DNA of 36,695 nucleotides from a virus (Duplodnaviria; Heunggongvirae; Uroviricota; Caudoviricetes). The notes under the pieces were generated by a model. It worked only from the letters and a program-made list of their open reading frames with translations, did no database searches and was not told the DNA's origin. This document shows positions 10,523 to 11,097 of this stretch, piece after piece. Where the stretch lies: IMG/VR virus record IMGVR_UViG_2851938318_000015; one strand, 5' to 3'. The translations under genes and the position numbers were made by a program. The stretch's first letter is position 1, and each line of letters opens with the position of its first letter.

Positions 10523-10978
10523 ATGGCCGTGCTTCGTACGTTACCGGGCAGAATCAAAACTCTGAATACCCGGCGGGTGAATGTCCTGAAGGGTGAACAG
10601 CGTCGGGTCAGTGGCAGTGCCCGGGTTTCCCTCAAGCGTCGTATCTGGCTGAGGGATGCCGGACAGTGCTGTCTCTGTGGGCGTGTGGTTGACCTTTGTG
10701 ACAGTGAACTCGATCACCGCATTGCACTTCAGTTCGGTGGTGGTAATGAGGAGACGAATCTCTGGACGCTCTGTACCGAATGCCATCGCCAGAAGTCAGT
10801 CAGTGAAACGGCGAGTGGTATGCCGGACCCGACGCTGCCGGAGGTCATGGCAGGGCAGACGATATCATCGGACTGTGACCCGCCCCGGGGGGGGGGATCA
10901 TCCGGCGAAAAAAACGATCGCCCCGGACACCGCCCCCCGTCTCATGCAGAGAAAAAATTCCTGTTTCAGGCCAGTTAA
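10523..10978 (+). CDS. HNH homing endonuclease (terminase-associated, HK97 gp74-like)
   Basis: CCLCGR...DHRIALQFGG...NLWTLCTECH motif; immediately upstream of the packaging region and small terminase. The 3' end contains a 10-G homopolymer, so the C-terminus is uncertain. Confidence 0.7.
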   Translation: MAVLRTLPGRIKTLNTRRVNVLKGEQRRVSGSARVSLKRRIWLRDAGQCCLCGRVVDLCDSELDHRIALQFGGGNEETNLWTLCTECHRQKSVSETASGMPDPTLPEVMAGQTISSDCDPPRGGGSSGEKNDRPGHRPPSHAEKKFLFQAS

Positions 10979-11097
10979 CATGTTAACTGGCTGCCCGGGC
11001 ATTTTTGCGGTTTTTATCTTTATTATTCAGTTTGTTGTGCGAAAAAAATGTTAACTGGCTTTTTCAGCAAATGTTAACCAGGCAGCAGTTAACATTT
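10971..11097. promoter_or_regulatory. Putative cos / terminase-binding region with clustered GTTAAC palindromes
   Basis: Perfect 20-bp palindrome CCAGTTAACATGTTAACTGG (10971-10990), a second palindrome AAATGTTAAC...GTTAACATTT (11069-11097) and five GTTAAC hexamers in about 125 bp, between the HNH gene and the small terminase. Confidence 0.5.

Follow-up and report, generated by a model that had tools for sequence, protein, structure and literature searches.

Between the HNH endonuclease gene and the small terminase (TerS) gene of a tailed-phage genome lies a dense group of GTTAAC-centred palindromes, and the question raised by this locus is which machinery reads them and to what end. The window, as we call the whole analyzed stretch of 36,695 nt (IMG/VR record IMGVR_UViG_2851938318_000015), was identified as a lambdoid prophage of the Stx-phage type (2851, 1717, BP-4795). 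Ninety-four phage records matched the region at 95-99.7% identity, among them Stx1a, Stx2a, and Stx2c converting phages as well as 2851, 1717, BP-4795, and YYZ-2008. The 207-bp spacer of this region was found in 1274 of 5426 complete E. coli genomes, approximately a quarter, with up to seven copies per EHEC strain.

The number of GTTAAC hexamers in the 36.7-kb window is unremarkable (seven, against a shuffle mean of 6.5); five of them start at 10974, 10982, 11050, 11073, and 11088. A Poisson estimate puts the probability that a given copy has at least four others within 125 bp at about 1e-8, so that the cluster of five in approximately 125 bp, reported in the preliminary description of this DNA, is real and far beyond chance. 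The repeated unit exceeds the hexamer: all five ATGTTAAC 8-mers of the window, counted on both strands, fall within 10974-11095, against 1.04 expected, and none of 100 shuffles reached five. The proximal pair (S1/S2; 8-mers at +34 to +47 from the predicted cut) forms a perfect palindrome, GCCAGTTAACATGTTAACTGGC, at 10970-10991, which measures 22 bp rather than the 20 bp first given. A single distal site on the + strand (S3, AAATGTTAACTGGC) occupies 11046-11059, and the second, interrupted palindrome (S4/S5, GCAAATGTTAAC-N9-GTTAACATTTGC, 11067-11099) is likewise present, although it extends 2 bp further than had been noted, to 11099. The three distal sites cover +108 to +155. The preliminary description had also argued for multimeric protein binding from a regular spacing of the sites; this argument fails because the centre-to-centre distances are 8, 68, 23, and 15 bp, values from which diverged relatives deviate by no more than 1 bp.

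The two groups of sites are separated by an AT-rich spacer (10992-11045; 64% A+T) with T-tracts at 11002, 11011, 11019, and 11031, for which an intrinsic bend is possible. Among relatives, the distance from S1/S2 to the distal sites is steady at 67-68 bp while the intervening sequence diverges. No IHF consensus (WATCAANNNNTTR, at most one mismatch) was found in 10900-11200. No + strand promoter-like sites were found near the cluster, and 10300-11800 contained no + strand terminator-like site and thus no intrinsic terminator on that strand. One minus-strand promoter-like match is made of the GTTAAC motif itself; with the + strand devoid of sites and the minus-strand match built from the motif, a promoter or terminator reading of the cluster was dropped. 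A 15-nt inverted repeat at 10933-10947 and 11101-11115 (CCCCCCGTCTCATGC / GCATGAGACGCCGGG, 87% complementary) flanks the cluster, its right arm being an inverted copy of the cut-site sequence placed just after the last GTTAAC site. This repeat is absent from the relatives L128 and L306; we therefore do not count it as part of the element, and it is probably fortuitous.

The surrounding genes place the cluster in a packaging context. Upstream are the lysozyme (8528-9025) and Rz (9010-9489) genes and, between these lysis genes and the HNH gene, a gene for a PerC-family transcriptional activator (9955-10269; Pfam E 4e-44). Beside the PerC gene is a small minus-strand ORF (10317-10481), whose counterpart in relatives is named YlcI/YnfO family by PGAP. 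The HNH endonuclease ORF, encoding a packaging accessory nuclease, lies on the + strand at 10523-10978 (Pfam HNH PF01844, 27.6 bits), and TerS is encoded on the same strand at 11170-11733 (Pfam Terminase_2 PF03592, 36 bits against a cutoff of 26.1, residues 2-57), which agrees with the flanking genes originally described. An HK97-like large terminase (TerL; 11730-13391, + strand; Pfam TerL_ATPase and TerL_nuclease) and a protease-capsid fusion (13455-15392) follow. By Pfam, the order of HNH endonuclease, non-coding cos, TerS, and TerL is that of an HK97-like module. The terS start codon is GTG with GGAGGAGG just before it, and PGAP calls an identical start in L128. In the PDB, TerS weakly matched the DNA-binding domain of SF6 G1P; the GTTAAC sites are presumably read by the N-terminal helix-turn-helix domain of TerS. 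The sole PDB relative of TerL is 6z6d (E 1.2e-9, residues 85-534), an entry code that appears in the HK97 large-terminase paper (PMC9410871). In alignments, the HNH ORF of the window lacks 10 bp (CCGGAGGTGT) near its 3' end relative to Escherichia phage Lys8385Vzw and L128; the deletion shifts the frame, so that the usual stop (TGA/TAA, ~10877) is missed and the ORF crosses the cos core. Its stop falls inside the first GTTAAC, the altered stretch covers 10840-10978, and the catalytic HNH motif (aa 49-92) is untouched.

The position of the cut could be approached through a single relative: only one of the 94 phage records, that of Lys8385Vzw (MT225100.1), is broken at the cos locus. Its TerL is 98.6% identical to that of the window, and all five GTTAAC sites are present. 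Another record considered as cut at cos, PV189401 (phi330), proved to be arbitrarily permuted instead. PhageTerm analysis of Lys8385Vzw virion reads assigned a cos with a 10-nt 3' cohesive end, CGCCCCCCCT (PMC7946995), the end in this relative having been mapped by PhageTerm alone. The record ends in CCGCCCCCCCT and starts with CTCACGCAG (longer termini: start CTCACGCAGAGAAAAAATTCC, end GGACACCGCCCCCCCT). Since its position 1 aligns to window 10941, the homologous cohesive end is CGCCCCCCGT at 10931-10940 on the + strand, a prediction by homology to the PhageTerm-mapped relative, with a predicted top-strand nick after 10940 and a predicted bottom-strand nick after 10930. Virion ends with approximately 10-nt 3' overhangs at this locus are thus seen by proxy, in the Lys8385Vzw record break at window 10940/10941. 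The predicted cut lies 30 bp upstream of the first palindrome, within what is annotated as the 3' end of the HNH ORF, and this placement leaves the GTTAAC sites at +34 to +155 on the packaged DNA, past the cut and ahead of the terS start at +230. The suggestion that the palindromes mark a candidate cos or packaging site therefore stands in part: the region is an HK97-like, HNH-associated cos packaging region in which the palindromes are very probably TerS sites, but cleavage falls outside the interval 10971-11097 proposed for it.

Around the cut extends a GC-rich cos core, equivalent to cosN with its flanks (~10880-10960), consisting of a G-run, ATCATCC, CGATCGCCC, then GGACACCGCNCCCCNT|CTCA, and AGAAAAAAT; the preliminary description had left this core unmentioned. 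The core is 76-100% identical across phage and satellite lineages with otherwise unrelated flanks. The G-run (10886-10895), approximately 46-55 bp upstream of the cut, ranges from 7 to 11 G among close relatives and is present in every core-sharing lineage, satellites included, and the PPompW prophage records have an IS110-family ISEc20 annotated at or beside it. The G-run could be part of the termination side of cos (cosQ-like) or an insertion hotspot.

Our comparison of diverged relatives revealed purifying selection on the sites themselves. The test set comprised the window, L128 (found by BLAST), and L306 and L321 (found by the core pattern), all recovered independently of the motif. Within 10961-11099, 37 of 38 motif columns were invariant in these four sequences, as against 58 of 101 other columns (Fisher p = 1e-6). 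The 9-mer AATGTTAAC at S3 was invariant in L128, L306, and L321, and S3, which is unpaired, was kept as strictly as the paired sites. In S4/S5 the inner AATGTTAAC/GTTAACATT was conserved and the outer arms were neither kept nor compensated; the outer palindrome arms (CTGGC, GCAAA/TTTGC) were lost in relatives. Among 156 loci anchored on the class-A terS start, five copies were present in 153, four in two, and none in one (an IS1 deletion). The prophage of E. coli TB354 (L129, 1-1560) has lost the HNH gene, the cos core, and every GTTAAC site to an IS1A insertion, which left only the last 54 bp before terS. This prophage should be unable to package its own DNA.

Lineages sharing the core were collected with a core-only probe (a degenerate pattern in viral contigs); a scan of genome contigs with the 14-mer GGACACCGCCCCCC returned chance matches in GC-rich genomes only. 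The core GGACACCGCNCCCCNTCTCA is common to nine lineages, each with a first GTTA at +33 to +35 and a second at +41 to +48; whether the motif reads GTTAAC, GTAAAC, GTTACAC, or GTTAAAG goes with the TerS class. The preliminary description had held that absence of the motif from otherwise syntenic relatives would speak against a packaging site; the five-site cluster proved to be confined to one TerS lineage, whereas the proximal pair occurs at +33 to +48 in all core-sharing lineages as sequence variants. In the window lineage the proximal repeats read GTTAAC-AT-GTTAAC. Salmonella SP-016-type phages have GTAAAC-AT-GTTAAC, identical to the window at 13 of 14 positions and centred at +40.5 in both, with the central ATG serving as the terS start codon. 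L250 has GTTAAC-GT-GTTAAC, its central GTG lying where the SP-016-type terS starts. GTTACAC occurs twice, 12 bp apart, in L084/L099 (a satellite with its own TerS), AAAAGTTAAAG twice in L264, and AAGTTAAA three times in L293/L299. Across these lineages, TerS differs in sequence but always has the Terminase_2 N-terminal domain. The repeats and the TerS N-termini thus differ among the nine lineages while the core is shared, as expected of a cosB-type array, although the correspondence of motif variant to TerS sequence is a qualitative one, drawn from a handful of lineages.

In lineages without the long spacer, the lineage motif recurs at approximately +215 to +300, inside the terS coding sequence, whereas in the window lineage the distal copies lie in the non-coding spacer of approximately 200 bp rather than in terS. 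The share of motif copies falling within +25 to +300 of the locus was 3/3 for GTTAAC in L250, 6/7 for AGTTACA in L091, and 4/7 for AAGTTAAA in L264 (14.8 kb). In the SP-016-type phages, whose TerS has a similar N-terminal domain, a single imperfect intergenic palindrome suffices, so that not every lineage needs the three distal sites. A hydrophobic mini-ORF of 24 codons (MLTGCPGIFAVFIFIIQFVVRKKC, window 10980-11054) starts at the ATG in the centre of the 22-bp palindrome; it was rejected as a conserved gene, its length falling to 14 codons in L128. In the SP-016-type phages, this central ATG is the true terS start (MLTAQKRK / MLTGQKRK) at an equal distance from the cut, and the shared position suggests that the window lineage arose by displacement of terS approximately 190 bp downstream. 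A metagenome contig (L371; Ga0116231_10153428, 1343 bp), unrelated and matched only through the GTTAAC pattern, carries at 200-450 approximately 15 ten-bp units (TAACAAATGT, AATGTTAACA/AATGTTACAA) upstream of a 216-aa low-complexity ORF; the array may be an iteron or pac-like array of another element.

Two kinds of satellite carry the core and differ in their terminase genes. The first is an E. coli island of approximately 11 kb at tRNA-Pro between yejM and yejO (L321, 1-11000), with an annotated copy in S1-CAM-02-A (L455, 1800-12800) and near-full matches in 48 of 5426 E. coli genomes. Its genes encode an integrase, Ash, Icd-like proteins, a primase, SSB, a PerC-family protein, a lambda-E-type major capsid protein, and a D-type decoration protein, and none encodes HNH, TerS, or TerL; it is a satellite making lambda-type capsid proteins yet carrying an HK97/HNH-type cos. 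The core and all five sites stand at its far end, directly followed by chromosomal yejO. Relative to the window, approximately 37% of the non-motif columns in 10961-11099 are changed in the island and the motifs are intact. That the island keeps the sites with no terS to regulate fits a cis-acting packaging signal read by a helper terminase. The satellites SaPIbov5 and EcCICFT073 carry a helper-type cos without terminase genes (PMC6092414), and the yejM-yejO island resembles these and P4, all cos-carrying satellites, in having a helper-type cos and no terminase genes. It differs from EcCICFT073, which has a lambda-type cosN without the helper cosB, in keeping the full class-A five-site array. 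The second kind (L099, 2500-7600; also L084, L091, and L112) has an integrase, a small capsid-family protein (308 aa), and its own Terminase_2 TerS, and the available sequence of the L084/L099 element contains neither TerL nor HNH. Its core is kept, and its repeats differ at the same position (GTTACAC at +33 and +45). The terS of L099 holds six more GTTAC/GTAAC copies, which encode a VTKKVTEKVT-like repeat, and the integrase gene is found twice in this contig, which may be a tandem or mis-assembled one. Taken jointly, the terminase-less island and the TerS-encoding satellite link the core with TerL/HNH and the repeats with TerS.

We consider it probable, at odds of roughly two in three, that the interval is the TerS-recognition part of a composite cos, the functional equivalent of lambda cosB, operating as follows. 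TerL, aided by the adjacent HNH protein, would nick the GC-rich core in a stagger and leave the 10-nt 3' overhang at 10931-10940. The side entering the capsid first would carry the five AATGTTAAC sites, namely the palindromic pair followed by three sites beyond the AT-rich, probably bent spacer. An oligomeric Terminase_2-type TerS would bind the proximal pair and the three distal sites through its N-terminal helix-turn-helix domains, with the segment at 10992-11045 probably letting the DNA bend between the two groups. Such binding would bring TerL, together with HNH, to the core so that the first cut is made there, and it would confer specificity on packaging, which would run rightwards into terS. 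The binding by TerS, its stoichiometry, the bend, and any role in termination are what we infer.

Known packaging systems offer partial parallels. In lambda, the cosB array (R3-I1-R2-R1, bound by gpNu1) is a set of TerS sites that positions the large subunit for the initial cut (PMC6092414). The cluster resembles it as an array of repeated, probable TerS sites over approximately 120 bp on the packaged side of the nick, between cosN and terS, with sites in both orientations and a probably bendable segment between them; five ATGTTAAC copies at +34 to +155 on the packaged side, with terS at +230, correspond to a cosB-type arrangement. Lambda has 5' overhangs, needs no HNH protein, and uses IHF to bend the DNA at I1. 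Nu1 belongs to a different TerS family and its sites have no sequence similarity to the GTTAAC array; lambda also has an IHF site between its TerS sites, in whose place the window has only phased T-tracts.

HK97 is closer in its cutting machinery. According to one study, HK97 DNA has 10-nt 3' overhangs and the HNH protein gp74 stimulates cos cleavage (PMC9410871), and our locus is similar to that of HK97 (gp1 TerS, gp2 TerL, gp74 HNH) in gene order, homologous TerL (6z6d), and type of end. The minimal site of HK97 TerS covers +15 to +29 on the same side of the cut (PMC11331095), compared with +34 to +47 for the proximal pair here, both a few tens of base pairs past the cut. HK97 TerS has no defined helix-turn-helix and threads the DNA through its central channel at a single 15-bp site (PMC11331095); by contrast, the window encodes a Terminase_2 TerS with a helix-turn-helix and carries five sites over 122 bp, unlike a gp1-type site. 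Because the recognition mode of HK97 TerS is not of the helix-turn-helix kind, the mechanistic analogy is positional only. TerS itself belongs to the G1P family (Terminase_2), as in SPP1/SF6. In the pac of SPP1, several short boxes are repeated and the DNA is bent near the cut; SPP1/SF6 package by headful (pac), and their boxes flank the cut on either side. Here, every site lies on the same side, and the close relative Lys8385Vzw was classed as cos with 3' cohesive ends rather than as a headful packager with permuted ends (PMC7946995).

Other explanations of the cluster have to be weighed against recognition by TerS. The most serious rival is that the sites are read by TerL and/or HNH, for example as anchors of a nuclease complex, and we regard it as unlikely. 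The sites adjoin the cut, cos is where TerL and HNH are known to work in HK97 (PMC9410871), and the terminase-less island would need both proteins too; but L250 and L260 combine a TerL nearly the same as that of the window with different motif arrangements, and in the satellite with its own TerS and without TerL/HNH the core is retained next to altered repeats. An operator array for a phage or host transcription factor or a nucleoid protein, outside packaging, seems quite unlikely to us: repeated intergenic palindromes are typical of operators and a PerC-family regulator gene is nearby (9955-10269), whereas the + strand has no promoter-like site, the IHF consensus is missing, the motif variant tracks TerS class and distance to the cut, and the same motifs occur inside the terS coding sequence in other lineages.

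It is very unlikely that the palindromes act instead as RNA hairpins in the late transcript, through processing, stability, attenuation, or translational control of terS. The 22-bp and interrupted palindromes do fold as stable hairpins, the region folds slightly better than shuffles (z = -2.4), and L448 has one symmetric flank change (CCAG/CTGG to GTAG/CTAC). Against a role in RNA, the unpaired S3 is conserved as much as the paired sites, outer stem positions of S4/S5 are lost in L128 and L321 without compensation, the cluster is kept in an island with no terS downstream, the + strand has no terminator-like site, and the sites are fixed in position relative to the cut and not to terS. The reading hardest to credit is that the spacer of approximately 200 bp has no function, having arisen by neutral insertion or as what is left of a small mobile element. 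In its favor, SP-016-type relatives lack the spacer and start terS approximately 40 bp after the cut, and the inverted repeat at 10933-10947/11101-11115 brackets it, but L128 and L306 do not share that repeat, purifying selection acts on the motifs while the spacers drift, and the spacer occupies 2998 places in 1274 E. coli genomes, nearly all of them with the full query between core and terS. A MITE or other mobile insertion was also rejected, since 1246 of 1279 records cover at least 80% of the query bounded by core and terS and the examined divergent copies likewise stand beside the core; as it occurs nowhere but beside the core, the spacer does not qualify as mobile.

Recognition by TerS remains our preferred reading, and from it we draw, tentatively and with slightly less than even confidence, a broader proposal. 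Enterobacterial HNH/cos phages and their satellites would share one core read by TerL/HNH and swap an adjacent "address" module, the GTTA pair at +33 to +48 together with the distal copies, read by the cognate Terminase_2 TerS. Satellites would either copy the full helper address without a terminase, like the yejM-yejO island, or keep the core with their own TerS and a private address, as in the L084/L099 type.

No published description of the GTTAAC sites or of the core was found in the searchable literature. The locus is most likely a known type of packaging signal and not a new mechanism, and the cos end has already been published for a close relative. To our knowledge, the combination of a helix-turn-helix TerS with a cos, HNH-dependent setting has not been studied structurally, and a defined cos at this locus would offer a testable system of TerS-DNA recognition in which a helix-turn-helix (Terminase_2) TerS works in such a setting. 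Our analysis also corrects the location of the cut, which falls inside the 3' end of the annotated HNH ORF. Prophages of this type include Stx1a and Stx2c converting phages of EHEC, and a defined cos would give a direct handle on the packaging and spread of toxin phages and of the islands riding on them. If the address-module proposal is true, packaging specificity and helper-satellite pairing in Stx-type prophages would be readable from sequence, and specificity could be re-programmed by swapping approximately 20 bp. The locus would be of value mainly as a ready-made, testable system of specificity in Stx-type prophages, which are of medical relevance, and in their satellites.
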